Positions 1 to 36,962 of a DNA stretch of 64,000 nucleotides are shown piece by piece. The translations under genes and the position numbers were made by a program. The notes below the pieces were generated by a model. That model ran no database searches. It worked only from the letters and a program-made list of their open reading frames with translations, and had not been told where the DNA came from. The stretch covers positions 1,549 to 65,548 of the forward strand of contig WRJE01000004.1 in the NCBI GenBank assembly GCA_009782385.1, given 5' to 3'. Position 1 is the first letter of the stretch; every line of letters starts with the position of its first letter. Source of the DNA: Oscillospiraceae bacterium. GTDB taxonomy: Bacteria > Bacillota > Clostridia > Oscillospirales > UBA929.

Positions 1-1
1 C

Positions 2-316
2 GTGATTGCTATTTATCATGTGCCCGAGGGCGAGAACTGCGAGTTTTTGCTTTTATCTTCGGATAATAAAGCGTTAATCGTGAATTCTAAGATTATCCCG
101 TTGAAATCAACAAGAACGACTATAGGCGTGGATACGATAAGTTTGCCGAAAGGACGCGAGTTGTCGTGCGTAATTAAAAATCCCGCGGCGTTATATCAAA
201 ACACGCAGCCCTACAGGAAAGCGAAAATTCCCGTGCGGGGCAGCGTGTTTACGCCCATAGATATAGAAGCGGACCAGATTTCTATGGATAGTATAATAGA
301 CGACGTTGATAATTGA
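2..316 (+). CDS. 3' end of an ORF that begins left of the window; function uncertain (faint resemblance to the C-terminal repeat region of type IIA topoisomerase A subunits)
   Basis: Open frame from the window edge to the stop at 314-316. AT-rich like the neighbouring element genes. No diagnostic motif recognised. Confidence 0.3.
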   Translation: MIAIYHVPEGENCEFLLLSSDNKALIVNSKIIPLKSTRTTIGVDTISLPKGRELSCVIKNPAALYQNTQPYRKAKIPVRGSVFTPIDIEADQISMDSIIDDVDN

Positions 317-320
317 GAAA

Positions 321-527
321 TCACTTAAATTTATTTTTATTCTTCGTCAGTTTGAGCGTAATCACGGCTGTCGCTATGCACGCAACTGCGGCGATTACTA
401 TGCCGATGATTTCGCGGTCGCCTGTTCCGGCTGCGATGTCCGGACCCTGTGCGCTCACTGAAACCGCGAAAATTATATTTAGTATGTATATTAATAAAAT
501 TGCAAAAATCCGTTTAATTATTTTCAT
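321..527 (-). CDS. Small secreted/membrane-anchored protein, hypothetical
   Basis: 68 aa. N-terminal signal-like hydrophobic segment ending VSVSAQG, a second hydrophobic helix, and a basic KNKNKFK tail. Confidence 0.4.
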   Translation of the reverse strand: MKIIKRIFAILLIYILNIIFAVSVSAQGPDIAAGTGDREIIGIVIAAVACIATAVITLKLTKNKNKFK

Positions 528-644
528 GATTTATATACCCTGCACCTTTATGTTTTTAATCTCTTAAAACTATTATAACATATAAATGTTTTAATGTCAA
601 CAGTTTATTAACATTTTTTTATTGGGTATATTTGTAATATTTAG

Positions 645-1958
645 TCAGTTAAGAATCAGCCAGAGTATTTTCGCGGTTTCCGCGCGCGTTATCCCTCCTG
701 AAGCGTTTAAATTATTATCTAACCATTTTGATTTGTCTATATATTTTGACGTGATTGACGCGGCGTTTGTCCTGCTTACTGATTTCTGCGGCCCGAACGC
801 GTAAGTTCTGCCGTCTGCGCCCGGATATAATTTATTATATAATCCGGCTTTGTAACACGCTTTCACGCTGTTTAACGCGTAGTTTGGGATTTTATCAATG
901 TCTGAAAACGGCAGTTTTACTCCGGAAACGTCCGAGTCTTTTATTTTTAGTTTTAAAGTCCTGACCATGAAAACCGCGAAATCAGAGTTATTAACTTCGG
1001 CTTTGGGCGAAAATTCTTTTTTCTGCGCATTATTCGCGGACGCCGCGACAGCGAACATTATGCCCGCTTCGTGCAAATCGTCCGCGTATTTAGCAGTTTG
1101 CGCGTCGTTATTTATATCGCTGAAATATATTGACTTTCCCAGAGAATTCGCGACGGTTTTATATATTAATTTATGCCCCGCGACATTCGGGTGGGGGTCT
1201 GTGTTAAACGTGAGAACCGAGGCGTTCAATACTTTTTTCGTTGATTTTTTAACTGCCGGCTGAACGTCGGCTATAATAAATTTATTTGACGCGCAGGTTT
1301 CTTTTATTATATTATTAATTTTATTTATATAAGTTTCGGCCGTATCATAAATGGGCTTGATAATTTTCTCGTAGTCTTTGTACGGATTATATACTGTTAA
1401 AAAAACGATTTTCGCGGTTTTGTTTTTCGCGAGAATCCCCGCGATTTTATCTATATCCGATTTAAATTTTTCGCAGGCTTTGTTTAAAGCTTTAATCATA
1501 TCGTCGTATTCTTTCACGCCGGGTTTAAAATATTCTGATATATAAGCCGAGATTAATTTCGGGTCGATTTGCTGCTGCGGGTAGTCCCCCATGCTTTCCG
1601 TATCTATATCCGGCGATAAATCTTCGAACGCGTTTGCGAAATTATTCAGGCCTATATTTACAGTTATAACAGACGCCGCCTGAAGCGCGGACGATAAATT
1701 TTTATCGGGATTTGATAGCTGCTTTAATAAATCCGCGGAATCAGCCCCGTCAACTGCGAAATCCCGAAGCTCGTGCGATAAATTTTTCGCGAGCAGATTA
1801 GGATAACTGTCGTTTGATTTATTTTTCAAGCCGTAGCCGGCGGCGATAGAATCGCCGAGCGATAAATATATTTTCGCGCTGTCCGCCGCGACAGAATTAA
1901 AGGGCAAAACGCACGACAAGAGCGCGATAAGCAAAATAAGCGCGGTTAATTTTTTCAT
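645..1958 (-). CDS. Secreted SGNH/GDSL-family hydrolase with C-terminal SLH-like repeats
   Basis: Signal peptide MKKLTALILLIALL. Block I GDSIAAGYG. C-terminal FSDI...ITRAETAKIL segments resemble S-layer homology repeats. GGAGGTG RBS. Confidence 0.8.
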   Translation of the reverse strand: MKKLTALILLIALLSCVLPFNSVAADSAKIYLSLGDSIAAGYGLKNKSNDSYPNLLAKNLSHELRDFAVDGADSADLLKQLSNPDKNLSSALQAASVITVNIGLNNFANAFEDLSPDIDTESMGDYPQQQIDPKLISAYISEYFKPGVKEYDDMIKALNKACEKFKSDIDKIAGILAKNKTAKIVFLTVYNPYKDYEKIIKPIYDTAETYINKINNIIKETCASNKFIIADVQPAVKKSTKKVLNASVLTFNTDPHPNVAGHKLIYKTVANSLGKSIYFSDINNDAQTAKYADDLHEAGIMFAVAASANNAQKKEFSPKAEVNNSDFAVFMVRTLKLKIKDSDVSGVKLPFSDIDKIPNYALNSVKACYKAGLYNKLYPGADGRTYAFGPQKSVSRTNAASITSKYIDKSKWLDNNLNASGGITRAETAKILWLILN

Positions 1959-2179
1959 AGATTAACACCTCCGTTAATATTATAATATATATTGAGGCAA
2001 TCTGTCAACACAAAAAATTTTTTTAAAAAAGGCTTGACAAAGCGGGGGGGGAGCTATAATATATAATGTGAGTAGCGCAACCCTATACTTTTGCATTAAA
2101 TTTAAACAAATAAATAAAGTTTTAGAAAAAACTATAAAAGCGATAAATGGGCAATAATAACGTGTGAGCGTTGAGTTTT

Positions 2180-3775
2180 ATGAAGCGTGTTTGTGCTTAT
2201 TGCAGGGTATCGACAGAGCAAGACGACCAGTTAAACAGCTTAGAGAATCAAAAAAGGTATTTTGAGCAATATATCAGCAATAATCTTGAATGGCAGTTTT
2301 GCGGGCTGTATGTTGACGAGGGTATATCAGGTACGAACGTCAATAAGCGTGCAGGGTTTCAGAAAATGGTACAGGACGCGGAAACACAAAAGTTTGACCT
2401 TGTGCTAACCAAAGAAATAAGCAGATTTGCCCGTAACACCTTAGACAGTATTTTCTATACCAGAAAACTAAAATCACTGGGCATAGGCATAGTTTTTATG
2501 AACGACAACATAAACACATTAGAGCCTGACGCAGAATTGAGATTAACAATTATGTCCAGTATAGCACAGGAAGAAAGCCGTAAAACCTCCGATCGTGTAC
2601 GGTGGGGACAGAAACGGCAAATGGAAAAAGGCGTTGTATTTGGGAAAGGTGTTTACGGCTATCACTTAAATAACGGTATGCTTTCTATTAACGAAGATGA
2701 AGCTAAGATAGTCAGACTGATATTCAAACTCTATCTTGATGAAGGTATGGGCGTATATGTTCTTTGTAAAGAACTTGAAAATAGGGGTATTCGCTCGCCT
2801 AGTGGTGATATGCGATGGAAAGACGCTAGTATACTGCGAATGTTACGCAATGAAAAATACTGTGGGACACTAAAGCAAAAGAAAGAAATCACGACCGATT
2901 ATTTAAGTCACAAAAGAAAACTCAACGAGGGTGAGGAAGATTTTGTTATCATCGAAAATAGCCATACTCCCATAATTGATAAACAGACTTTTGACAGAGT
3001 ACAACAGGAGTTAATAAGAAGACGCACTAAGCAAATTGAAAAGGGCAGACATTCTAACCGTTATGTATGGTCGGGCAAAGTGGAATGTTTTCATTGCAAA
3101 TCGAAGTTTAGACGCAAAGTAAACAATATGAACTCGCCATATCCTCAAACTGTATGGCAGTGTGGCGAAGCTAAAAAATACGGTAGTAAAAAAATCAACG
3201 CCAACGGTCAGATTGCAGGTTGTGACTGTAAGCAAATCCATGAGCTGATATTACAGGCTAGTTTTATGACTGCTTTAGATACGGTGCTAAAAAACAAAGA
3301 AAGTGTTTTAGAGAGGCTAAAAGATGTTATACATGGCACATTATCAGAAATAGGGGACTGTGCCGAAGAAACACGGGAAATTGAACGGGATATTGCACGG
3401 ATAAACGGGCGGAAAGTAAAGCTGATGGAACTGTTTTCAGGTGAAGCAATCACCAGAGCCGAGTTTAACAGTGTAAACGACCAGTACAACAAACAACTGG
3501 AAACCGTTTTTAAGCGTCAAGCTAAAGTCAATGAAACCATTGATAAAGCAGGAGATTTGAAAGAACGGCTTGCGAATATTGACACTTTATTATATAGCCT
3601 TTTCACTAACGCAGTATCCGAAGAAGATTTTATTTTCAGTGAAAAAGTGTGTAATGAGACATTGCATAAAGTGGTAGTTGAGAGCAGGGACAAGGTTAGT
3701 TTCTATTTGAAAGGTTGCGAAAACAATGAACCTTTTTTTATACCCCTTTCCCTAACGAAGTGGGGACTGCGTTAG
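2180..3775 (+). CDS. Large serine recombinase (resolvase/invertase N-domain, recombinase domain, zinc-ribbon/coiled-coil)
   Basis: N-terminus KRVCAYCRVSTEQDDQ...SRFARN (catalytic Ser motif). Central recombinase-domain motifs. Cys cluster CFHC...CGEAKKYG...CDC. ~530 aa. I prefer the ATG at 2180 over the TTG at 2171. Confidence 0.9.
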   Translation: MKRVCAYCRVSTEQDDQLNSLENQKRYFEQYISNNLEWQFCGLYVDEGISGTNVNKRAGFQKMVQDAETQKFDLVLTKEISRFARNTLDSIFYTRKLKSLGIGIVFMNDNINTLEPDAELRLTIMSSIAQEESRKTSDRVRWGQKRQMEKGVVFGKGVYGYHLNNGMLSINEDEAKIVRLIFKLYLDEGMGVYVLCKELENRGIRSPSGDMRWKDASILRMLRNEKYCGTLKQKKEITTDYLSHKRKLNEGEEDFVIIENSHTPIIDKQTFDRVQQELIRRRTKQIEKGRHSNRYVWSGKVECFHCKSKFRRKVNNMNSPYPQTVWQCGEAKKYGSKKINANGQIAGCDCKQIHELILQASFMTALDTVLKNKESVLERLKDVIHGTLSEIGDCAEETREIERDIARINGRKVKLMELFSGEAITRAEFNSVNDQYNKQLETVFKRQAKVNETIDKAGDLKERLANIDTLLYSLFTNAVSEEDFIFSEKVCNETLHKVVVESRDKVSFYLKGCENNEPFFIPLSLTKWGLR

Positions 3776-4121
3776 CTATGGCAAAATCCTCGCGGTTCAC
3801 GTAGTCGATAAGCGTCAGCCCGTTGTCATGCGCCTGCTCGAGCAGCCATAGCGGGATACGCCCGCCAATGCCTATTTGGTCGCCGCGCATAACATTTACT
3901 ATTTCATTGGGACTAAAGGCTTCGCCGATGATATTGACCGCACCCGCTTTCGTCAGCATAGGCAGCGGCCAGATGACGCACTCTGCCCGCGCCACGGCAT
4001 CTTCGATACTGTTTGCGGAGTTCTGCCCGATTCCCCAAGTGTATACCTTGTGACCGTCCTGCAAAAGCAGGCGCGTCAGCCGCGCTTGCCGTTCATCGCC
4101 GCCGATAACTGTATAAATCAA
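3738..4121 (-). pseudogene. dpaA: 5' part (~120 codons) of dipicolinate synthase subunit A, truncated at the recombinase-element junction
   Basis: TTG start preceded by GGGGAGGG. IYTVIGGDERQ...NREDFAIANAVPT is colinear with the N-terminal DpaA/SpoVFA family. After PT, six unrelated codons and a stop follow. The expected family length is roughly 290-300 aa. Confidence 0.75.
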
Positions 4122-4149
4122 AAAAAGCCCTCCCCATAGATACAACGCA

Positions 4150-4196
4150 CAGATAACAGATTACAGATAACAGATAGCCCTGCACACTGTTATCTG
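4150..4196. promoter_or_regulatory. Three copies of CAGATAACAG (two direct, one inverted) upstream of dpaA
   Basis: CAGATAACAGAT at 4150-4161 and 4164-4175. The inverted copy CTGTTATCTG is at 4187-4196. The motif lies 30-75 bp upstream of the dpaA start. Confidence 0.3.
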
Positions 4197-4238
4197 TTCA
4201 CTGAAACGGTTCTACCACATTGTATTCGGGGAGGGGGG

Positions 4239-4718
4239 TTATTGTGAGGATAATGTATCGACTACTTTAAGCAGCTCATCAATATTGACTTCATTGTTAA
4301 AATAAAAACAAATACAAAGAGTGGTCTCTTGGCTGTTTTCGATGTTAGCTGTAATGTCAGAAACTCTCATTTCATCGTTATATATATCACAAAGATAATC
4401 TTCTTCTCCATAAATCTCAAACCTATATTCGCTTGCTATTTGGTGATAATCCATACGGAGAGCTTTTTCTTTTGACAGTTTAATTTCAAGCCAGACGCAA
4501 TCAATATCAATTCCTATATCCCCGATACCATTCAACGAGATAACAGGAATTGGAAAAGTTTCTGTTACAAAAACTCCGTTATGCTTTACGGAATGGTTGT
4601 TGAAAAAACCGCTTTTTATCTGAATCCCCGATTTTTTCAAGGCTTTGCGTATTTCGTCATATTTCGCGCAAATCGGAGCGTATATCTCATTAAGATAATT
4701 CAATACTTCCATGTTCAT
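4239..4718 (-). CDS. Hypothetical cytoplasmic protein
   Basis: 159 aa from the ATG at 4718 (MNMEVLNY) with a GGAGGT RBS. No recognised motif. AT-rich. Confidence 0.5.
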   Translation of the reverse strand: MNMEVLNYLNEIYAPICAKYDEIRKALKKSGIQIKSGFFNNHSVKHNGVFVTETFPIPVISLNGIGDIGIDIDCVWLEIKLSKEKALRMDYHQIASEYRFEIYGEEDYLCDIYNDEMRVSDITANIENSQETTLCICFYFNNEVNIDELLKVVDTLSSQ

Positions 4719-4735
4719 TTTATTACCTCCATCGG

Positions 4736-4768
4736 CAAACAATCCTCGCAGGTGACAATATCAACACC
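4736..4768. repeat. Left copy of a 33-bp direct repeat (duplicate of the 3' end of the DUF1667 gene)
   Basis: caaacaatcctcgcaggtgacaatatcaacacc; 32/33 identical to 6956-6988. Confidence 0.95.
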
Positions 4769-5040
4769 TAAAATAGGTCTGAATGAGTGCCTGTGCGTGA
4801 AGCGGTTAATATCAGCTTTTTCCCGTCAATTAAGTAAATGAGAAGCCAGTCCGACTGAATGTGACATTCTCGAAACCCGTTATAATCTCCGGTCAGCTCA
4901 TGGTCACGGTGCTTCGGGGCAAGCGGCTTTTGCTCGCGGAGCGTTTGAATGATTTCGTCAAGCAGTTCAATTTTAAGACCGCGTTTTTTACATAGGTTGC
5001 GGTCTTTTCTATATTTTTTAGTTGTATGGAGAAATAACAT
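4768..5040 (-). CDS. yafQ: Type II toxin, YafQ/RelE family mRNA interferase
   Basis: KHRDHELTGDYNGFRECHIQSDWLLIYLIDG...RTGTHSDLF matches the YafQ C-terminal signature. The start lies just downstream of the antitoxin gene's stop (2-nt gap). Confidence 0.85.
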   Translation of the reverse strand: MLFLHTTKKYRKDRNLCKKRGLKIELLDEIIQTLREQKPLAPKHRDHELTGDYNGFRECHIQSDWLLIYLIDGKKLILTASRTGTHSDLF

Positions 5041-5042
5041 TA

Positions 5043-5342
5043 TTACGCATACTCCGCATCATACTCGGCATCTAACTCCGCATTGAGTTCGGTAACGGAG
5101 TTATAACCTTTAGATTGAATCTTGCCGCTTGCAATATCCCGCGCTTCTTTCATGGCGGCTAATGTTTCTTCGTTGTATTTTGGTAAAGTTATGTCGAAAG
5201 GCAAGCCGCCGACAATCATAGATTTGTGTAGAAAAATATTTACCGCGTCCGCTACGGTAAGTCCAAAATGAGAAAAGATTCCGTCAACGGTTGATTTAAC
5301 TTCGGGTTCAACCCTAATATTTATACTTGCAGTTTTAGCCAT
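5043..5342 (-). CDS. dinJ: Type II antitoxin, RelB/DinJ family (RHH)
   Basis: MAKTASINIRVEPEVKSTVDGIFSHFGLTVADAVNIFL is a typical DinJ N-terminus. It lies immediately upstream of yafQ. Confidence 0.85.
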   Translation of the reverse strand: MAKTASINIRVEPEVKSTVDGIFSHFGLTVADAVNIFLHKSMIVGGLPFDITLPKYNEETLAAMKEARDIASGKIQSKGYNSVTELNAELDAEYDAEYA

Positions 5343-5366
5343 ATCAATCACGTATAATAGAATCAA

Positions 5367-6943
5367 CCCAAGATTTGGGGGTGGTTCTATTATTTTCCCC
5401 TTTCATAAAATTTGGTTATATCAGCGGGATTAGCTGCCCGACAGATATAATAGATGTGGCGCTGCGGATTTGTACATCTTAATCTACGGCTTTGACTGTT
5501 TCGGGGTGACTCAAACCGCAGACACCTGTCTAAATTGGTAATCAGTTGGTTAACGCATTGACGTTTTATATGCGTGAGTACATGGCAGGTGTTCTGCGGC
5601 AAACCGTGCCGCGCCGAATACTATTTTTTGGAGGTCTGCCAATGAATAACGTAGGAATCGACATCTCAAAGTACAAACATGACTGCTTCATCGTCACCGA
5701 CTTCGGTGAGGTTTTGAACGAAGGTTTTTCCTTCGAGAACAACGCCAAAGGTTTTTCCATGTTGCTGGACGAGCTGCTCAAAAGCGACAAAGAAAACCTC
5801 AGAATTGGCTTTGAATCAACGGGAAACTACAGCATCAACCTCAAATTGTTTCTTGAGAAAAACGGGTATTCCTTCATGGAAATTAACCCGGTTCTCGTTA
5901 AAGAACATATCAAAAGCCAATCTTTGCGCCGTACCACAACGGACAAGCTCTCTGCAATGGCGATTGCAAACTATTTAATCTCAAAGGAGTATTTGCCCCA
6001 TCTGAAATCCTTTTACCACACCTTTTCACTCAAACAGCTAACGAGGCTCAGGAGCGACCTTGTACACCAACGCAGCCGGTATCTCGTTCAGCTCACAAAC
6101 GTATTAGATTGCGTCTTCCCTGAGTTTAAGCCGTTTTTTGACGGGAAGTTCTCGGCAACCGCTCTGTTCATATTGACAAATTATCCTTCTCCTGAAAAAA
6201 TCGCCAACATGAACGTGAAATCCTTTGATATTCTTCGCCGCAAATCCCGCGGCAAGTTTTCAATGGATAAGTTTGTCATGCTCAAACACTTAGCCAAGAA
6301 CACGGTGGGGATGTATACTGATTTCTATGGGATTCAGATGGATGCTCTTTTGGACATTTACTACCAAATCGACTGCAAGCTCTCTGAGGTTGACGCTGAA
6401 ATCACCAAAATCATTACTGAAATTAATCCGCCTACGCTCTCAATAAAAGGGGTCGGCGAGGTGTCGGCCGCTGTAATCGTCTCGGAGTTCGGTGACTTTT
6501 CCCGCTTTCCAAATCCGGGCAAAATGCTTGCCTTTGCCGGACTTGAACCCGGTTATTTCCAGTCCGGCATCGCCGAACATAACGGGCGTATGGTTAAACA
6601 TGGTTCAGCGCATCTGCGCTGTGCTATCCTGAACTGCTGTCGGGCGTTGCGTCTTCACAACGAGGTCTTCGCAGCCTATTACTTAAAGAAAATCGGCGAG
6701 GGCAAGGAACACGGGGTTGCCGTGAGCCATATGGCCAAAAAGCTAATTCGCCTGATTTTCACTCTTGAAACCAAGGGCGAGAGGTTTGACCCGGCTAAAC
6801 TGAGATAGTTTGACTTCTCTTCAAAATCGCCCTTTCACATGGGCTTGTTTGTTATACCGTTTTTCAGCTTGTGAATTTTATTTCAAAAAAGACTTGACTT
6901 CTAATAGTTGGTCACCCCACTTACAGTATACACCATTTTAGAA
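5367..6943 (+). mobile_element. IS110-family insertion sequence (ends not defined)
   Basis: Single DEDD-type recombinase gene flanked by ~275 bp (5') and ~135 bp (3') of non-coding DNA. No terminal inverted repeats, as expected for this family. Confidence 0.6.
5642..6808 (+). CDS. IS110-family transposase/recombinase (DEDD N-domain plus IS116/IS110/IS902 C-domain)
   Basis: MNNVGIDISKYKHDC..., then ...GVGEVSAAVIVSEFGDFSRFPNPGKMLAFAGLEPGYFQSG...KHGSAHLR. GGAGG RBS before the ATG at 5642. Confidence 0.9.
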   Translation: MNNVGIDISKYKHDCFIVTDFGEVLNEGFSFENNAKGFSMLLDELLKSDKENLRIGFESTGNYSINLKLFLEKNGYSFMEINPVLVKEHIKSQSLRRTTTDKLSAMAIANYLISKEYLPHLKSFYHTFSLKQLTRLRSDLVHQRSRYLVQLTNVLDCVFPEFKPFFDGKFSATALFILTNYPSPEKIANMNVKSFDILRRKSRGKFSMDKFVMLKHLAKNTVGMYTDFYGIQMDALLDIYYQIDCKLSEVDAEITKIITEINPPTLSIKGVGEVSAAVIVSEFGDFSRFPNPGKMLAFAGLEPGYFQSGIAEHNGRMVKHGSAHLRCAILNCCRALRLHNEVFAAYYLKKIGEGKEHGVAVSHMAKKLIRLIFTLETKGERFDPAKLR

Positions 6944-7303
6944 TCAAATACAACACAAACAATCCCCGCAGGTGACAATATCAACACCCGTGCCAAGTAT
7001 GTCCGTGACAACCACATCACCCGCAAGAATCGGCGGATTGATATGAGTGCGGCGCAGCACTTGCATACACGGCAGCAGCATTGCTTTAGGCAGCGGGAAC
7101 GCCGATTTTACAGGCACGGGCATACCGTTCCCCGCAACGGCAACCGTTGTTGTGAGCATACGGCGCGGGTCGAACAGCTCCGATTGCGCGTATGTCTCGC
7201 CGCGCTTGCAGGCATTGCCCGTCAGCTTGCTTATCTCCCCACCGTTAACGTCCGCGTTCATGCGGCAGCCCATGGGACACGAAATACACGTTATCTCTTT
7301 CAT
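6944..7303 (-). CDS. DUF1667 family protein of the anaerobic glycerol-3-phosphate dehydrogenase cluster
   Basis: MKEITCISCPMGCRM...CKRGETYAQSELFDPRRMLTTTV. ~120 aa. Follows the two flavoprotein genes, which is typical in Clostridia. Confidence 0.8.
   Translation of the reverse strand: MKEITCISCPMGCRMNADVNGGEISKLTGNACKRGETYAQSELFDPRRMLTTTVAVAGNGMPVPVKSAFPLPKAMLLPCMQVLRRTHINPPILAGDVVVTDILGTGVDIVTCGDCLCCI
6956..6988. repeat. Right copy of the 33-bp direct repeat (within the 3' end of the DUF1667 gene)
   Basis: caaacaatccccgcaggtgacaatatcaacacc; encodes GVDIVTCGDCL on the minus strand. Confidence 0.95.
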
Positions 7304-32826: not shown

Positions 32827-33603
32827 TTATGGAACAGGGGACGCTGAGGTAAGTTTATCATATATTGAAACTGCTGCTATTGAAACGACAATCATAATGG
32901 CAGATGTAATAGTTACGCCTAAAATGGTCTGATTAGGTATAAACGTACTTGGTCCGGCATTAACCGCGCAATGAAAAAGCAAGCATAAAAATATATTTCC
33001 TTTTGATATTTTATGAATCGCGCCCAATGCAAATGTCCCTCCAAACAAAATAATCGCGGAGAAAAAAGACCTCACTCCCAACGAACTATTCTCCAGAGAC
33101 AGCCATAGGGGGACGTGCCATAATAACCAGATAGGGGCGGTAATTAAACATGAAAGGATGTAACCGAATTTCTTGTTCAATTCGGAATATAGTATATATC
33201 TCCAACCCGCTTCTTCCATTCCCGCGCCGTACAACAGCGACCCAAGCATCCAGACGAAAAACATATATAGAGGCTCTGCCCTATTCAAACCGGAAGTCAC
33301 TATCAGTGAAACCATGAGGACAACAAACAAAGCAATGACAAACAGGTAATTATATACCGATGTTTTGACTGTAAAGATATTCCTCAGCCATTCTTTCATG
33401 CCTGATACTTTATTGTTTCTCTTTAGCACTATGAATGAAGCGATTGCCGGAGACCATGCGCCGATAAATTGAGGTGAATATAATACAGGATATTTTTCAA
33501 GTGTAATTCCAAACTGCCCGCATAAAACTAATCCTCCCCAAAAAATGAGCATAATGGTAAAGGTCAATGCGGTAAAATGAATAACTATTTTTTTATTTAT
33601 CAT
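32827..33603 (-). CDS. CPBP-family intramembrane glutamic endopeptidase (CAAX protease/bacteriocin self-immunity family)
   Basis: Polytopic. Motifs GMEEAGWRY, LLWHVPLW and LLFHCAVN. Confidence 0.8.
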   Translation of the reverse strand: MINKKIVIHFTALTFTIMLIFWGGLVLCGQFGITLEKYPVLYSPQFIGAWSPAIASFIVLKRNNKVSGMKEWLRNIFTVKTSVYNYLFVIALFVVLMVSLIVTSGLNRAEPLYMFFVWMLGSLLYGAGMEEAGWRYILYSELNKKFGYILSCLITAPIWLLWHVPLWLSLENSSLGVRSFFSAIILFGGTFALGAIHKISKGNIFLCLLFHCAVNAGPSTFIPNQTILGVTITSAIMIVVSIAAVSIYDKLTSASPVP

Positions 33604-33644
33604 TGCGTTAACCTTTCTCGTATAATATTGGTTTTAAGTCAGAC

Positions 33645-33713
33645 GGGCGGTCAATGACCGCCCCTACGAACGAGATTGCATTATAAACGGGCGACCGTGA
33701 CGGTCACCCTTAC
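33645..33713 (-). repeat. Two reverse-oriented REP-like units
   Basis: GGGCGGTCaatGACCGCCCCTAC (33645-33667). GGGCGACCGtgaCGGTCACCCTTAC (33689-33713), which overlaps the arsR-like stop. Confidence 0.75.
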
Positions 33714-34027
33714 AGAATCGGAATCATTTTTGACAGTTCCGTTAGCAATTCGGGCGTTAAATGAATGTCAAAGTCTTTTATTTCATAATATTTCATTGAT
33801 TTTCCGGTTTCGGAGATTTCATAGCTCCATGTCACAATAGCGGCTTCCTCGAGTTTTTTTAAGTGCATATAGAGAAGCGGCCTGCTCATGTTCATTATTT
33901 TAGCCAGTTCGCTGACATACCGCCGCTTTTCCGAAAGAACGCCGACAACCTTTATTCTCATTGGATGAGAGAGCGCGTCAAATAACCTTGTGTAATCCTC
34001 ATGGCTTGATAAAATCAAGCTCTCCAC
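33710..34027 (-). CDS. ArsR-family winged-helix transcriptional regulator
   Basis: LFDALSHPMRIKVVGVLSEKRRYVSELAKIMNMSRPLLYMHLKKLEEAAIV is a typical ArsR HTH. Confidence 0.8.
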   Translation of the reverse strand: MESLILSSHEDYTRLFDALSHPMRIKVVGVLSEKRRYVSELAKIMNMSRPLLYMHLKKLEEAAIVTWSYEISETGKSMKYYEIKDFDIHLTPELLTELSKMIPIL

Positions 34028-34028
34028 G

Positions 34029-34289
34029 TTATTCTATCTCCTTCATCATCTTGTTTATGGAGCTAAGACTTTCGTTCATGTCGGCGAGTTCTGCTTTAAC
34101 GGCTTCGATTTCTACCGTAAGTTTAGTTGTCAGTTCTTCAAACGAATTTTTGCTTATGGCAGATAAGCGGGCTTTGTATGCTTGACCTATAACAATAATC
34201 AGCACAACAGCGATAATAGCGATGAAACTAAAAATTAAACTTACCTTCATCACTTCATTACCTAAACCTACCATTAATAACTCATCCAT
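34029..34289 (-). CDS. Small membrane protein with a cytoplasmic coiled-coil tail, hypothetical
   Basis: One TM (VSLIFSFIAIIAVVLIIVIG), then heptad-like ELTTKLTVEIEAVKAELADMNESLSSINKMMKEIE. 1-nt gap to the arsR-like gene. Confidence 0.5.
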   Translation of the reverse strand: MDELLMVGLGNEVMKVSLIFSFIAIIAVVLIIVIGQAYKARLSAISKNSFEELTTKLTVEIEAVKAELADMNESLSSINKMMKEIE

Positions 34290-34317
34290 GTTAACCTCTC
34301 CTTGTTTGTAATTATTT

Positions 34318-34343
34318 CATATGTAATAAAAATATTACATATG
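34318..34343. promoter_or_regulatory. Perfect 10-bp-arm palindrome, candidate operator of the ArsR-like operon
   Basis: CATATGTAAT aaaaat ATTACATATG, 30-55 bp upstream of the 34289 start. Confidence 0.45.
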
Positions 34344-34366
34344 GTATATTGGCATTGTAATATATA

Positions 34367-34397
34367 AAAGGATATTTGTCAACACAAATATCCTTTT
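34367..34397 (-). terminator. Intrinsic terminator after yoeB
   Basis: On the minus strand: AAAGGATATTTG tgttga CAAATATCCTTT followed by TATATATT. Confidence 0.5.
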
Positions 34398-34454
34398 CAA
34401 AATGTTAATTTTTTGTGAACAGAAAAAGGGGGGATTAGCAATACTTATGTAATA

Positions 34455-34715
34455 TTAATCATCGTAATGACCGCCGCATTGAGCAATAATGATTTGGTTA
34501 CGTTCAACTTTATAAACAATACGGTTAGTTTCATCAATACGCCTGCTCCAATACCCATGTCTATTCCCCCTTAAAGGTTCAGGTTTGCCGATACCTTTGA
34601 AGGGGTGGCGATCAATATCCTTGATAATAGCATTGATACGCTTTAGTGTCTTTTTATCTTCTGTCTGCCACTCAATATACTCGTCCCACGCTTTGTCATG
34701 CCAGATTTTATTCAT
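34455..34715 (-). CDS. yoeB: Type II toxin, YoeB/Txe family
   Basis: MNKIWHDKAWDEYIEWQTEDKKTLKRINAIIKDIDRHPFKGIGKPEPLRGNRHGYWSRRIDETNRIVYKV...GGHY is a near-textbook YoeB. Confidence 0.9.
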   Translation of the reverse strand: MNKIWHDKAWDEYIEWQTEDKKTLKRINAIIKDIDRHPFKGIGKPEPLRGNRHGYWSRRIDETNRIVYKVERNQIIIAQCGGHYDD

Positions 34716-34974
34716 CTTCAACCTCAATTAACTCATGAACCGTAAGGTTTCGTCCGGCTTCAATATCGTTTATTCTGCGGGCAAGCTCTGCTTGATTTTT
34801 ATCGCTGTAAAACGGGTCATAAATATCAAAAGGTATTTTTCCCTGCCGCAGGGATTGCCGCGCAAATATATTGAACGCGGTAGATAAATTCATGCCAAAA
34901 TCATTAAACATCCTTTCGGCTTGTTCTTTAATTTCCCTGTCAATCCGGATTGTTACATTGATTGTATCAGCCAT
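34708..34974 (-). CDS. Type II antitoxin with a DinJ/RelB-type RHH N-terminus, paired with YoeB
   Basis: MADTINVTIRIDREIKEQAERMFNDFGMNLSTAFNIFARQSL. AGGAGG RBS. 8-nt overlap with yoeB. Confidence 0.8.
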   Translation of the reverse strand: MADTINVTIRIDREIKEQAERMFNDFGMNLSTAFNIFARQSLRQGKIPFDIYDPFYSDKNQAELARRINDIEAGRNLTVHELIEVEDE

Positions 34975-35045
34975 CACAAGCACCTCCTGTTTGTATTATA
35001 CCACAGTATTTCGTGCATATCAAGTAATATGCACGAAAAATATTG

Positions 35046-35486
35046 CTATACATCGCCAACCATCACAATCGTGTCTTCAAGAGTGAAAAAGTCCAACTTC
35101 TTATAAAAAGCATGAGCCGGGATATTTCTTTGTGTACTCAACATAATAGCAGGTATGCCAAGTACAACCAACTCTTTCTTTACACCCTCCATCAAGGCAA
35201 TACCAATACCCTGCCTTTGCAAATTCGGGTCAACAATATAGTCATTGATGTAATACTCAGTTCCTTTGGTGTAGGGCTTTTCATATCCGAAACAAAGAGC
35301 AATAATCTTGTCGTTTTGCTTTCCTACAAAACCTATGAAAAAGTTGTTTGAAGTCCATTTGCTTATATAATCCACCACAACATCGCGTGATTCCCATTCC
35401 TCATTCCAAGGCTCTGCTGAATATGTTTTCATATATAAGTCTACACATTCATCTAACATAGATACATCAAATTTCTCGATAGTCAT
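35046..35486 (-). CDS. GNAT-family N-acetyltransferase
   Basis: YIVDPNLQRQGIGIALMEGV (acetyl-CoA motif A Q/RxxGxG/A). 146 aa. AGGAGGA RBS at the ATG at 35486. Confidence 0.8.
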   Translation of the reverse strand: MTIEKFDVSMLDECVDLYMKTYSAEPWNEEWESRDVVVDYISKWTSNNFFIGFVGKQNDKIIALCFGYEKPYTKGTEYYINDYIVDPNLQRQGIGIALMEGVKKELVVLGIPAIMLSTQRNIPAHAFYKKLDFFTLEDTIVMVGDV

Positions 35487-35562
35487 TTTCACTTTTCCTC
35501 CTATGTATAGTATAAATACCGCCGCCAAGTCCAATCCGAACAAGGCAACGCAGAAAATAAAA

Positions 35563-35961
35563 CTACTGTACCGTTTTTTGTAAAAATTCTGCCGGTGTCA
35601 TAATAAACGATTCATTAGGATAATCTTTTATATTGCCTGTGATAAGGATTGCCCCTATTGCCATTGCCGTATCGTAGAAAATGCGATCTGTCTCGTCAGA
35701 CATGGGGATATCGCTTTTTTCGGGGGTAATGCTTTCGCCGTAATCTTTCATCTTTGCCAACAGGCTTTCTCTTTTGTGGACGGAAAAAGCAAATTTCGGA
35801 CGACTTAATACTTCGGTGTATTCCTCAAGAATAAAATCATTGAAGACCGGGATAATGTTACTCGGCATCATTTTAATAATCGCAGAAGCATTCCCGTCAT
35901 CGGACCATAATGCCGACACCAAAATATTTGTGTCTATAACAACCCTTATAATACTCTTCAT
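35563..35961 (-). CDS. PIN-domain toxin (putative ribonuclease)
   Basis: RVVIDTNILVSALWS...FYDTAMAIGAILITGNIKDY; acidic residues in PIN spacing. 4-nt overlap with the upstream antitoxin. Confidence 0.8.
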   Translation of the reverse strand: MKSIIRVVIDTNILVSALWSDDGNASAIIKMMPSNIIPVFNDFILEEYTEVLSRPKFAFSVHKRESLLAKMKDYGESITPEKSDIPMSDETDRIFYDTAMAIGAILITGNIKDYPNESFIMTPAEFLQKTVQ

Positions 35962-36257
35962 GCTTGTATCCGTTGTTTTTCGCTGCGGTAGGCTTTTATT
36001 TCCGCATTGATTTCATCAGCAGTCAAAAAACCTTTTTTTTCGTTTTCGGCGCGGATGCTTTCTATCAGTTGATGAAATTGAGCGGCTTCGTTTTCCGCCA
36101 TATGGATTTTGAAAGGTATAGCTCTTTCATTAACCATTTGGCGAACGAAGATATTGATTGCCGTGGACAATGTCATTCCCATAGCATTAGCTATGGAATC
36201 CGCTTCTTTTTTCACAGAACGGTCAATTTTTACATTCAAACTCGCTAAATCGCCCAT
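35958..36257 (-). CDS. Type II antitoxin with a DinJ/RelB-type RHH N-terminus, paired with the PIN toxin
   Basis: MGDLASLNVKIDRSVKKEADSIANAMGMTLSTAINIFVRQMV. Start at the ATG at 36257; the longer ORF to 36440 is rejected. Confidence 0.75.
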   Translation of the reverse strand: MGDLASLNVKIDRSVKKEADSIANAMGMTLSTAINIFVRQMVNERAIPFKIHMAENEAAQFHQLIESIRAENEKKGFLTADEINAEIKAYRSEKQRIQA

Positions 36258-36458
36258 ATCAAACAGCCCCTTGTTAATTGATAGACATATTATAGCATGA
36301 TATTCGCCTGTTGTCAATACAATGGGCGAATATTGCGTGTTAATCAAAATTTTTTCACGCAAATATCGAACATGACATATAGTTGTCGTGTTCGATATGA
36401 TAATATATTTACAATGTCGCTTGCGGGCGCAATTTTGCAAATATTAGGAGGGAAAGCC

Positions 36459-36962
36459 GTGTTAAATAAAGCCTTGGTGGTAATAGATGTTCAAAATGAC
36501 ACAACAAAGAATTACAAGGAGATAATTGATGACATTAACAGAGCTGTTGATTGGGCGGTTAGTAATAATATTCATGTCGTCTATATCAGACACGAAAATT
36601 TATCAGACGGTACAAGGACTTTCAAGCCCAACACTCGCGGTTCAGAACTGGCTGCAGACTTAAAAGTAGTAACAGAAAACATTTTTACGAAATACAAGCA
36701 GAATGCGTTAAGCAGCGAGGAGTTCACGGAATTTATCGGTAAGAATGGGATACGCGAGTTCTATCTGACAGGGGCGGACGCTATTGCCTGTGTTAAATCA
36801 ACTTGCTATAATCTGCTTAAAGATAATTACAAAGTTACCGTCATATCAGATTGCGTAACGAGCTATGATAAAAGGAAAATTGACGAAATGCTGCGTTACT
36901 ATGAGAGCAAAGGCGGCATAATAATCAGCTTGAATGCCTTGTTAGATTCTACCCCTTTATAA
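36459..36962 (+). CDS. Isochorismatase-family cysteine hydrolase
   Basis: [11 protein letters not shown]...[16 protein letters not shown] (catalytic Cys context). GTG at 36459 preceded by AGGAGGG. Confidence 0.75.

Follow-up and report, generated by a model that had tools for sequence, protein, structure and literature searches.

Genes and features at the dpaA locus

We analysed 64,000 nucleotides of a contig from a gut Oscillospiraceae genome, hereafter the window. At its left end, a large serine recombinase (LSR) gene and its neighbours lie against the 5' part of dpaA, the gene for subunit A of dipicolinate synthase. Dipicolinate is a spore compound, and mother-cell (sigma-K) expression of dpaA is established in B. 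subtilis. The features are listed below.

1 to 316, plus strand: cargo, gene similar to that for type IIA topoisomerase subunit A; the left edge of the window leaves only its 3' end
321 to 527, minus strand: cargo, 68-aa hydrophobic small protein from the ORF list, called as a gene on contig L001 too
645 to 1958, minus strand: cargo, GDSL lipase/acylhydrolase carrying a signal peptide and, C-terminally, an SLH-like part (Pfam Lipase_GDSL_2 3e-16, SLH 1.5e-6; G+C about 38-44%)
2034 to 2062, plus strand: sigma-70-like promoter (TTGACA-17-TAATAT) upstream of the LSR gene, 10/12 in a consensus scan
2180 to 3775, plus strand: LSR, 531 aa from the ATG at 2180 or 534 aa from the TTG at 2171 (Pfam, PHROG, PDB)
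3715 to 3810, minus strand: attL, approximate limits, with a host arm from 3774 to about 3810 (GAGGATTTTGCCATAGCT...), the core, and an element arm at about 3715-3760 (CTTCGTTAGGGAAAGGGGTATAAAAAAAGG, dpaA sense)
3738 to 4121, minus strand: dpaA 5' fragment, 121 DpaA codons (to ...NAVPT) plus six element-derived codons (SLGKGV) and a stop
3761 to 3773, minus strand: 13-bp core common to both junctions, AACGCAGTCCCCA in the dpaA sense, from aligning the attL of the window and L005 with the attR of L009
4122 to 4250, minus strand: dpaA upstream region with the inverted repeat CAGATAACAG...CTGTTATCTG, a ribosome-binding site and, as a weak promoter-like match, CTCACA-18-TACAAT (sequence and promoter scan)

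The initial annotation had read the ORF at 3738-4121 as the N-terminal part of dpaA with a TTG start. Both the Pfam DpaA_N match (PF16924, E 3e-17, residues 11-115) and the NCBI annotation (FWG36_01210, 127 aa) agree with this. The start codon, preceded by GGGGAGGG, and the ribosome-binding site are intact; CTCACA-18-TACAAT is a promoter-like match only, to which no sigma factor is assignable. The last DpaA-like residues are ...REDFAIANAVPT, followed by SLGKGV and the stop. Similarity had been said to end before SLGKGV, and in tblastn the homology to the intact relative P0004 indeed covers window positions 4115-3750, with the break inside the core at 3761-3773. The insertion site is dpaA codon ~121, encoding the conserved motif ANAVP(T/S)AEGA. 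The whole 64-kb window contains no dpaA 3' half by tblastn, so the other end of the element lies outside it, as had been proposed.

The LSR has the Pfam domains Resolvase (1e-33), Recombinase (6e-25) and Zn_ribbon_recom (3e-5). PF00239 and PF07508 score above the Pfam cut-offs; PF13408, at 24.6 bits, is just below its cut-off of 25.3 and passes in relatives. The recombinase of a 78% identical relative on L008 has a faint match to the coiled-coil family PF18822. The catalytic RVS motif is invariant in recombinase alignment A1, and the PHROG match is an integrase (4e-122). Homologues in the PDB are a conjugative-transposon recombinase (3g13, the closest solved) and SPbeta SprA (9dxh; E 2.5e-22, distant similarity only). 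The LSR gene is convergent on the dpaA fragment, and the dpaA promoter is therefore unable to drive it; its own promoter appears, judged by its sequence, to be of vegetative type. The initial annotation had the recombinase abutting the junction and reading toward dpaA. Its edge position and direction stand, but the reading frame actually crosses the crossover site: the final codons (KWGLR, stop) are dpaA in antisense, and the stop codon, inside the fragment on the opposite strand, is host sequence.

Beside the dpaA 5' half, the window holds the LSR and about 3.7 kb of cargo. The topoisomerase-like gene exceeds 663 aa on L001 (Pfam DNA_topoisoIV 8e-106; PHROG DNA topoisomerase II), and a lectin and an invertase are further visible cargo types beside the topoisomerase and the surface lipase. 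The visible part, about 8 kb (window 1-3760, L001 and L009), is the smaller share of the element. In this part we found no phage structural, packaging or lysis genes, and the PHROGs matches were to integrase, topoisomerase and invertase only. IMG/VR gave no relative. Conjugation and mobilization genes (relaxase, coupling protein, type IV secretion) are absent from the window, which holds only the smaller part of the element; the related element on L002 has TrwB/TraG-like fragments. No recombination directionality factor was recognisable in the visible part. In L005 and L008 a conserved 55-57-aa ORF lies ahead of the recombinase gene; the window lacks it.

Overall G+C is about 39% in the element versus about 56% in the host. 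The left side had been described as AT-richer than the chromosome to the right. This holds for the element, with about 38-41% at positions 1-3750 against about 53% in the dpaA fragment, but positions 4239-6900, just right of dpaA, are likewise AT-rich (35-45%). They contain a DUF3201 gene, a YafQ/RelB toxin-antitoxin pair and an IS110 transposase, and host-like G+C (55-58%) begins only near 7000. No sporulation gene was found among the 30 other window ORFs tested. The window diverges from L001 at 2042, inside the LSR promoter, and from L005 left of 2180, both being contigs of a related metagenome assembly; the linkage of the LSR to the genes on its left is thus strain-specific. The dpaA/LSR junction itself is reproduced in the independent assembly at 98.7% identity (L005).

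The missing 3' half and the attachment sites

The initial annotation had suggested searching for the missing dpaA 3' part and aligning both junctions. We found the 3' half as P0154 (MCL1820780.1), 180 aa, on a 15.6-kb contig of an Oscillospiraceae MAG. Its accession is 1,526 away from MCL1819254.1 of the window. A near-identical copy, P0273, is located on L009; this contig and L005, which carries a twin of the window junction, derive from one ENA sample. Based on accession proximity and sample identity, P0154 very probably belongs to the MAG of the window, in which the dpaA halves are on separate contigs. The second junction was taken from L009/P0154 and not from the contig of the window.

Both junctions share the 13-bp core, and joining them rebuilds the gene exactly in frame. 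The joined host sides read ...EDFAIANAVPSAEGAVQLA and encode a DpaA of 283 aa, which is 62% identical to intact P0004 over 279 aa, colinear and gapless at the joint, and colinear with B. subtilis DpaA (2rir, E 6e-37). The joined element sides give an attP with imperfect inverted arms, TATAGCACTTTTCCAAACG and CGTTAGGGAAAGGGGTATA. The symmetry centre of this reconstructed attP is on CC and the crossover lies inside the core. The element arm of attL is an imperfect inverted repeat (15/19) of the arm adjoining the dpaA 3' half on L009, and is homologous to the recombinase-side arm of an intact attP on L008. On L008/L016, the recombinase with 78% identity has such an unrecombined attP at its 3' end, and the same two arms flank dpaA in L002 and L008. 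The dpaA junction is a true attachment site of the recombinase. The recombinase is intact, as are the two gene halves and the two attachment sites, and the insertion should therefore be reversible. A collection of 5.8 billion proteins contained no rejoined dpaA of the lineage of the window.

Recurrence and selection

The architecture claimed for the window, an element splitting dpaA, recurs in many lineages. About 25 cluster representatives of DpaA stop at the break residue and have an element-type tail, and about 28 dpaA 3' fragments start there. One 90%-identity cluster includes both split and full-length members. The public assembly collection has one split form recorded in 37 of its blocks, and all 24 contigs read from these carry it. 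The same break is found in L002, L003/L004, L008 with L016, and L011, which represent independent samples and assemblers.

The 2.75-Mb contig L011 contains a complete element. In brief, the dpaA 5' half is followed by an LSR (40% identical to that of the window), CheR, a Lactamase_B-family protein (PF00753), a chemoreceptor and a hemerythrin, and then by the dpaA 3' half and dpaB. The element spans 7,356 bp core to core, in frame, with co-oriented halves and dpaB downstream, and has no transfer or phage genes.

Both dpaA halves are under purifying selection. The dN/dS is 0.09 for the 5' halves (window versus L002) and 0.08 for the 3' halves (L009 versus L008), with 79% amino-acid identity between lineages in both halves (dN about 0.13, dS about 1.5), and no stop or frameshift was present in any half examined. 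It should be noted that the 78% identical relative is inserted in the opposite orientation to the window element. The insertions are thus probably independent, and the dN/dS values may for this reason largely reflect the time before insertion.

In the sister lineage L008, dpaB is interrupted as well, with a recombinase at the edge of the interruption, which may be reversible too. Recombinases 41-47% identical to the LSR sit in cotJC, another mother-cell sporulation gene, at about 55 metagenome loci, several of them complete elements of 3-9 kb.

Comparison with known intervening elements

We found no description of dpaA as a target in the literature searched, in line with the initial annotation, and dpaA appears to be a new, widely used target of sporulation intervening elements. 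The vfbin element of Bacillus weihenstephanensis KBAB4 interrupts spoVFB (dpaB) (Abe et al. 2013, as cited in PMC4191935 and PMC6957869). According to these citing accounts it is, like the dpaA element, a serine-recombinase element in a dipicolinate synthase gene of the same mother-cell operon, and its excision rebuilds the gene. They differ in target (subunit B versus A here) and host (Bacillus versus a high-G+C member of the Oscillospiraceae, Clostridia), and excision of the dpaA element is a prediction from sequence.

The skin element (sigK/SpoIVCA; B. subtilis, C. difficile) also has an LSR at its very edge, next to a mother-cell gene fragment. Skin elements, whose cargo is unrelated, can be as small as a few kb or reach tens of kb (PMC5025042; bioRxiv 10.1101/2022.02.25.481979); the L011 element resembles the small ones. 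Unlike skin, the dpaA element has another target gene and an LSR frame that crosses the crossover site, and no Skr or CD1234-type directionality factor was found in its visible part. SPbeta (SprA-SprB, spsM) and phi3T (kamA) share with the dpaA element a serine integrase, an extended core common to both sites (16 bp in SPbeta versus 13 bp here) and a vegetative-type promoter, in the dpaA element an apparent one. Directionality in SPbeta comes from a sporulation-controlled factor (PMC5499854, PMC6957869). In contrast, the visible parts of the dpaA element contain no phage genes, and no SprB-like gene was identified in them. The gin (gerE, B. cereus) and yin (yabG, C. botulinum) elements show that such elements need not be prophages and can harbour several serine recombinases (PMC5595907); inverted repeats flank their 9-14 bp core (PMC10747680). 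Comparably, the L009 element has a second, small serine recombinase at its far end. The targets differ, and for gin and yin excision is experimentally proven with a defined partner factor, GirX.

Proposed excision and its alternatives

The site-specific insertion is real, and the matching junctions, the in-frame rejoining, the recurrence in many lineages and the purifying selection on both halves are likewise established. With moderate confidence, we suggest that the element is excised in the mother cell at sporulation and that this restores dpaA, as in skin. In brief, the element has integrated by serine-recombinase site-specific recombination at dpaA codon ~121, and recombination between the junctions within the core would free a circular element and leave the in-frame 283-aa DpaA. 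By analogy with skin, SPbeta, vfbin, gin and yin, this would take place in the terminally differentiating mother cell, which would then make dipicolinate, and the spore (germ-line) genome would keep the element. Presumably a directionality factor exists and both dpaA halves lie on one chromosome in direct orientation. Skin-like excision is a candidate, as the initial annotation had labelled it. The lack of a rejoined dpaA of this lineage in the protein collection, of a recognisable directionality factor in the visible part and of sporulation genes among the 30 other ORFs counts against it. The sigma-70-like promoter of the LSR also speaks against it, as does the G+C of about 39% versus about 56%, which argues against long co-residence of element and host.

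These last two features fit an ordinary integrative mobile element (conjugative, mobilizable or phage-derived) for which dpaA, dispensable in vegetative growth, is a mere safe landing site. Such an element would excise for horizontal transfer only or never, and the host would sporulate without the enzyme, use another dipicolinate route or not sporulate. The accessory or transfer-like cargo (topoisomerase, surface lipase, lectin, invertase; TraG/TrwB-like fragments in L002), the conjugative-transposon origin of the closest solved LSR homologue and the insertion polymorphism inside one 90% cluster point the same way, and according to the literature EtfA replaces DpaAB for dipicolinate in some clostridia. 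We nevertheless consider this less likely than excision in the mother cell. The halves are stop-free in every lineage examined, with a dN/dS of about 0.09, one split form is on record in 37 blocks, and compact L011-type elements (7.4 kb) persist without transfer or phage genes. That related recombinases target a second mother-cell gene, cotJC, is hard to square with chance site choice. The two accounts do not exclude each other: SPbeta is excised in the mother cell and also as part of its own cycle.

If sporulation or dipicolinate synthesis had been lost, the split dpaA would be a decaying insertional pseudogene. The lack of sporulation genes among the 30 other ORFs, the dpaAB genes that the literature reports in some non-spore-formers and the interrupted dpaB of L008 would suit this. 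It is nonetheless improbable given the intact and conserved halves, the intact dpaA start codon and ribosome-binding site, and the intact recombinase and attachment sites; the L008 dpaB interruption, with its edge recombinase, may itself be reversible. An assembly artefact, with a mobile element chimerically joined to a dpaA fragment in a metagenome bin, might be suspected from the divergence of two contigs of another assembly at 2042 and 2180, where the region varies between strains. Such an artefact is very improbable, however, because the junction recurs in L005, the same break is found in the other independent samples and assemblers, and the junction structure is as expected of recombinase sites.

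Implications

Sporulation intervening elements are among the few programmed DNA rearrangements in bacteria, and nearly all those described are from cultured bacilli, with a few from clostridia. The present case adds dpaA and, in passing, cotJC as targets, with the same dpaA codon broken in dozens of gut Oscillospiraceae lineages, among them split forms on record in many public assemblies. If excision is developmental, annotation pipelines that rely on intact dpaA or cotJC to judge sporulation capacity would wrongly classify many gut spore-formers, dipicolinate synthesis could be timed or gated by the elements, and genome engineering would gain recombinases whose sites, about 50 bp long, are defined. 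If it is not, the site is a well-defined insertion hot spot at which a spore-quality gene is inactivated in nature.

Quite tentatively, and aware that it may well prove wrong, we speculate that the window element belongs to a large, so far undescribed clade of serine-recombinase elements in the uncultured Clostridia of termite and human guts. Its members would have the attachment site inside the 3' end of the recombinase gene, be specialised for the mother-cell genes dpaA, cotJC and possibly dpaB, and insert either way via a flipped central sequence; programmed rearrangement would then be common in sporulation of gut Oscillospiraceae. The recombinase at one dpaB junction is distantly related (27% identical). 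Integration swaps the C-terminal tail of the recombinase, which is 531 aa when integrated versus 561-565 aa when free, and this could provide an inbuilt switch for directionality or expression.

The interrupted dpaA gene

The dpaA gene, encoding dipicolinate synthase subunit A, is split in the window by an element that carries a large serine recombinase. The features at the break are as follows.

2171/2180-3775, plus strand: recombinase gene with Resolvase, Recombinase and Zn_ribbon_recom domains
3738-4121, minus strand: dpaA 5' fragment of 127 residues, TTG start eight bases downstream of GGGGAGGG
3761-3773: 13-bp core (AACGCAGTCCCCA) common to both junctions of the element, from junction alignment

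The initial annotation had described both genes from the sequence, and both are confirmed. Residues 11-115 of the dpaA fragment match Pfam DpaA_N (PF16924, E 3e-17), colinearity with DpaA ends at ...REDFAIANAVPT, and SLGKGV and a stop follow. The recombinase gene lies at the break and has the three domains listed. The NCBI annotation agrees for both, with FWG36_01210 and a 531-aa "recombinase family protein" on a 65,644-bp contig of an Oscillospiraceae MAG. The proposed contrast in base composition is real, with a more complex pattern than first described. G+C is about 38-41% at 1-3750 and about 53% in the dpaA fragment, but positions 4239-6900, right of dpaA, are AT-rich again, and host-like values of 55-58% begin only near 7000.

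The missing 3' half and the attachment sites

A tblastn search with an intact DpaA matched only the 5' half; the dpaA 3' half is thus absent from the entire window. Only three proteins matched the 5' fragment in a word-based search, all of them cut at the identical residue. The nearest intact DpaA in an exhaustive phmmer search was P0004 (286 aa, 57% identical), from a termite-gut Oscillospiraceae MAG; its dpaA-dpaB is uninterrupted. Many 3' fragments were matched by the C-terminal half of P0004, the closest two being P0154 and P0273. P0154 (MCL1820780.1) is a 180-aa protein on a 15.6-kb contig of an Oscillospiraceae MAG, and it very probably comes from the same genome as the window, since its accession is only 1,526 from the window's MCL1819254.1. 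P0273, its twin, is encoded on ENA contig L009 from sample ERZ27257320. The same sample is the source of contig L005, which repeats the window's dpaA/recombinase junction at 98.7% identity; that the split is an artefact of assembly is very improbable. The 3' part that was expected elsewhere, with a matching core, is thus very probably present in this genome. Among GTDB species representatives scanned with the 3' half, only the intact relative WRLW01000061 matched. DpaA matches of 243-247 aa, considered as possible fragments, proved to be complete proteins whose N-domain is short.

In dpaA sense the window junction reads GAGGATTTTGCCATAGCT-AACGCAGTCCCCA-CTTCGTTAGGGAAAGGGGTATAAAAAAAGG and the L009 junction GGTATATAGCACTTTTCCA-AACGCAGTCCCCA-GCGCGGAGGGTGCTGTTCAGCTTGCC, and aligning the two, as had been suggested, defines the 13-bp core. 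The joined host sides read ...EDFAIANAVPSAEGAVQLA... and encode a protein of 283 aa, with ...GCCATAGCTAACGCAGTCCCCAGCGCGGAGGG... as the predicted sequence of the rejoined dpaA junction. This protein is 62% identical to P0004 over 279 residues, gap-free at the joint, and aligns with B. subtilis DpaA (2rir, residues 4-276). Joining the element sides gives an attP, the site of the element circle, with inverted-repeat arms (15/19 matches) centred on CC within the core; the predicted circle junction is ...CACTTTTCCAAACGCAGTCCCCACTTCGTTAGGG.... Judged from these sequences, the insertion is a classic outcome of serine-integrase recombination and would, on paper, be fully reversible.

The recombinase and its own site

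The integrated recombinase ends in ...FFIPLSLT|KWGLR*, its last codons and TAG stop (3773-3775) being antisense dpaA. The free form, as reconstructed, has about 30 further codons and is 561 aa long. The sole close relative, 78% identical and 565 aa long, is encoded on contig L008 and its independent JGI twin L016, and adjoins an unrecombined attP. One arm of this attP is also the one that precedes the dpaA 3' half on L008; the other follows the 5' half on L002, a contig of the same JGI sample. Throughout the wider clade, between a few and about 35 codons separate a conserved FF(K)IPLSxT motif from the end of the ORF, so it is a general feature that the site lies at the 3' end of the recombinase gene, inside it. 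A conserved C-terminal tail as a clade-wide feature was rejected; it is common to the two closest relatives only, and tails vary elsewhere.

The recombinase matches the PHROG integrase family phrog_95 (4e-122). Among solved structures it comes closest to a C. difficile conjugative-transposon recombinase (3g13, 3e-42) and to SPbeta SprA (9dxh, 2.5e-22). No relatives were found in IMG/VR, and all tblastn matches in GenBank phages were below 40% identity; a phage origin of the element finds no support in these searches. A single dpaA-specific recombinase clade was rejected: among 80 metagenome loci with relatives only L016 adjoins a dpaA fragment, and in L037 some 6 kb separate the recombinase from an intact dpaA. 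Recombinases of 56-64% identity have other flanks, many labelled Bathyarchaeota, and dpaA-adjoining recombinases of other lineages (L011 and L012-L015) are only 36-45% identical.

After the one close relative, the next recombinases (56-61% identical; P0345, P0350, P0354, P0359, P0368, P0375 and others, probably L017-L029) are mostly in MAGs labelled Bathyarchaeota, Nitrososphaerota or Candidatus Bathycorpusculum, flanked by neither dpaA nor cotJC. The archaeal labels could reflect cross-domain transfer in one habitat or binning error.

Orientation of the insertions

The recombinase of the sister lineage (L002 and L008) points into the dpaA 3' half, whereas that of the window converges on the 5' half. 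With respect to the recombinase gene the attP arms lie the same way round in either case, and the 12 bp at the centre, between AACG and CGTT, are flipped between the window and L008. In recombinase sense this stretch reads AAGTGGGGACTG in the window and CCGTGCCTACAG in L008, and the central dinucleotide is CC in dpaA sense in both. In serine integrases the central dinucleotide sets polarity, and the flipped centre with its constant CC fits this rule. The opposite orientations and inverted centre imply that the two insertions were probably independent events.

Element content

The visible parts, which are the minor share of the element, hold no phage or conjugation genes. Their cargo is as follows.

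Window: 3' end of a type IIA topoisomerase subunit A-like gene; small membrane protein; secreted GDSL lipase with SLH-like part
Far end (L009): GLUG-motif surface protein; 199-aa serine invertase; 99-aa membrane protein

The window departs from contig L001 at 2042, where L001 (1-1265) has a tRNA-Lys(ttt) and a B_lectin gene, and from L005 left of 2180, where in L005 (region 3790-4957) the start of the recombinase is overlapped by a 55-aa ORF. The element interior is thus mosaic between strains. The 55-aa ORF, with CxxC, is conserved on L005 and L008/L016 and missing from the window; it is a possible partner or regulator.

Recurrence across lineages

Of the 150 best cluster representatives in the search with the 5' fragment, about 25 stop at the residue where the window's dpaA breaks and carry element-type tails (for example NAVPT|AFGKQEY, NAVPA|ALAV and NAVPT|ALQKGH; intact proteins have NAVPT|AEGA). 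Of the 120 best 3'-half matches, about 28 have a foreign leader immediately ahead of (A)NAVPTAEGA. Both figures count clusters, each of 50% identity and with one representative; as split and intact forms may share a cluster, they need not mirror the natural frequency of split genes. One 90%-identity cluster holds split and 285-aa members together. A frameshift at a CCCC run was rejected as the cause of truncation, the tails matching element arms and neither shifted dpaA frame.

A complete small element, 7,356 bp core to core and in frame, is present in L011, from a 2.75-Mb contig. Its order is dpaA 5' half, recombinase (40% identical), CheR, Lactamase_B-family protein (Pfam PF00753), 1,179-aa chemoreceptor, hemerythrin, dpaA 3' half and dpaB. 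A split dpaA is also carried by the Oscillibacter sp. of MBD5161945.1. The split form P0303 is recorded in 37 blocks of a public assembly collection and present in all 24 contigs read. In this type (L012-L015, e.g. L013 8393-11112) a 518-aa recombinase adjoins the 3' half and is divergent from it, and dpaB is intact. No 5' half lies within 10 kb upstream of the 3' half in L012-L015, and the genes there look metabolic (PFOR, HpaB, CbiA-like); the alternatives are a very long element and widely separated halves.

In the sister lineage dpaB is cut too (L008 572-2621, equal to L016 2912-5063), at about codon 113-125 after ...APCTGNTLA. Past the cut follow a 51-56-aa ORF, a different recombinase (27% identical), and then the intact attP and the 78% relative; this region of a 5.5-kb contig is a nested or composite arrangement.

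Recombinases of 41-47% identity stand at a break in cotJC, a spore-coat Mn-catalase gene, in about 55 metagenome loci (L030, L034-L095; many from human gut). The break is at DIGT|EE(L/F)(A/G)HLE. At several loci the element is complete, 3-9 kb long and accompanied by both halves; both orientations are seen (examples: L084 7446-11283; L036 6608-11964; L034 6929-11793). In L084 the recombinase ORF continues in frame into the cotJC 3' half.

Selection and function

Between the two sister lineages the 5' and 3' halves each show 79% amino-acid identity. The dN/dS is 0.09 for the 5' halves (window and L002) and 0.08 for the 3' halves (L009 and L008), and dS is about 1.5 for either pair. Since the insertions differ in orientation, some of the signal may predate insertion. 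No stops or frameshifts were found in any dpaA half examined, and a decaying pseudogene is improbable.

We suggest that the element would be excised in the mother cell by recombination between the junctions, restoring dpaA. This is probably its function, by analogy with the sporulation gene-intervening elements skin, SPbeta, vfbin, gin and yin (PMC4191935, PMC5025042, PMC5595907, PMC6957869, PMC10747680), and we favour it because the split gene is conserved, the compact elements lack transfer genes, and cotJC is a target of remoter recombinase relatives. The chief alternative is a mobile element for which dpaA is a harmless place to insert, with no developmental control; it is possible and clearly the less probable of the two. 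Upstream of dpaA and of the recombinase gene no sporulation-type promoter was found, only weak sigma-70-type matches, and none of the 30 ORFs tested in the window is a sporulation gene.

The targets of intervening elements named in the papers searched are sigK, spsM, spoVFB, spoVR, gerE, kamA and yabG, and a broad comparative study of sporulation genes covers dpaAB with no mention of split genes. The initial view that dpaA is not a described target is borne out within the open-access literature searched, which names neither dpaA/spoVFA nor cotJC; an earlier report elsewhere is possible.

Other features

A 2.2-kb insert at 4736-6988 is flanked by a 33-bp direct repeat (4736-4768, 6956-6988). 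Its neighbours are a DUF1667 and a DUF3201 gene, and contig L005, near-identical in other respects, lacks it. A second AT-rich island spans 33000-36500, with 37-39% G+C against about 50-56% around it. The genes of both are as follows.

4768-5040: YafQ toxin
5043-5366: RelB antitoxin
5546-6808: IS110-family transposase
35046-35543: GNAT acetyltransferase
35958-36440: RelB/DinJ-type antitoxin with N-terminal extension

Two large proteins, P0006 (2,573 aa) and P0146 (843 aa), match DpaA N-domain residues ~46-111 in 8 and 6 separate stretches, respectively, which suggests that they contain a repeated module related to part of DpaA_N.
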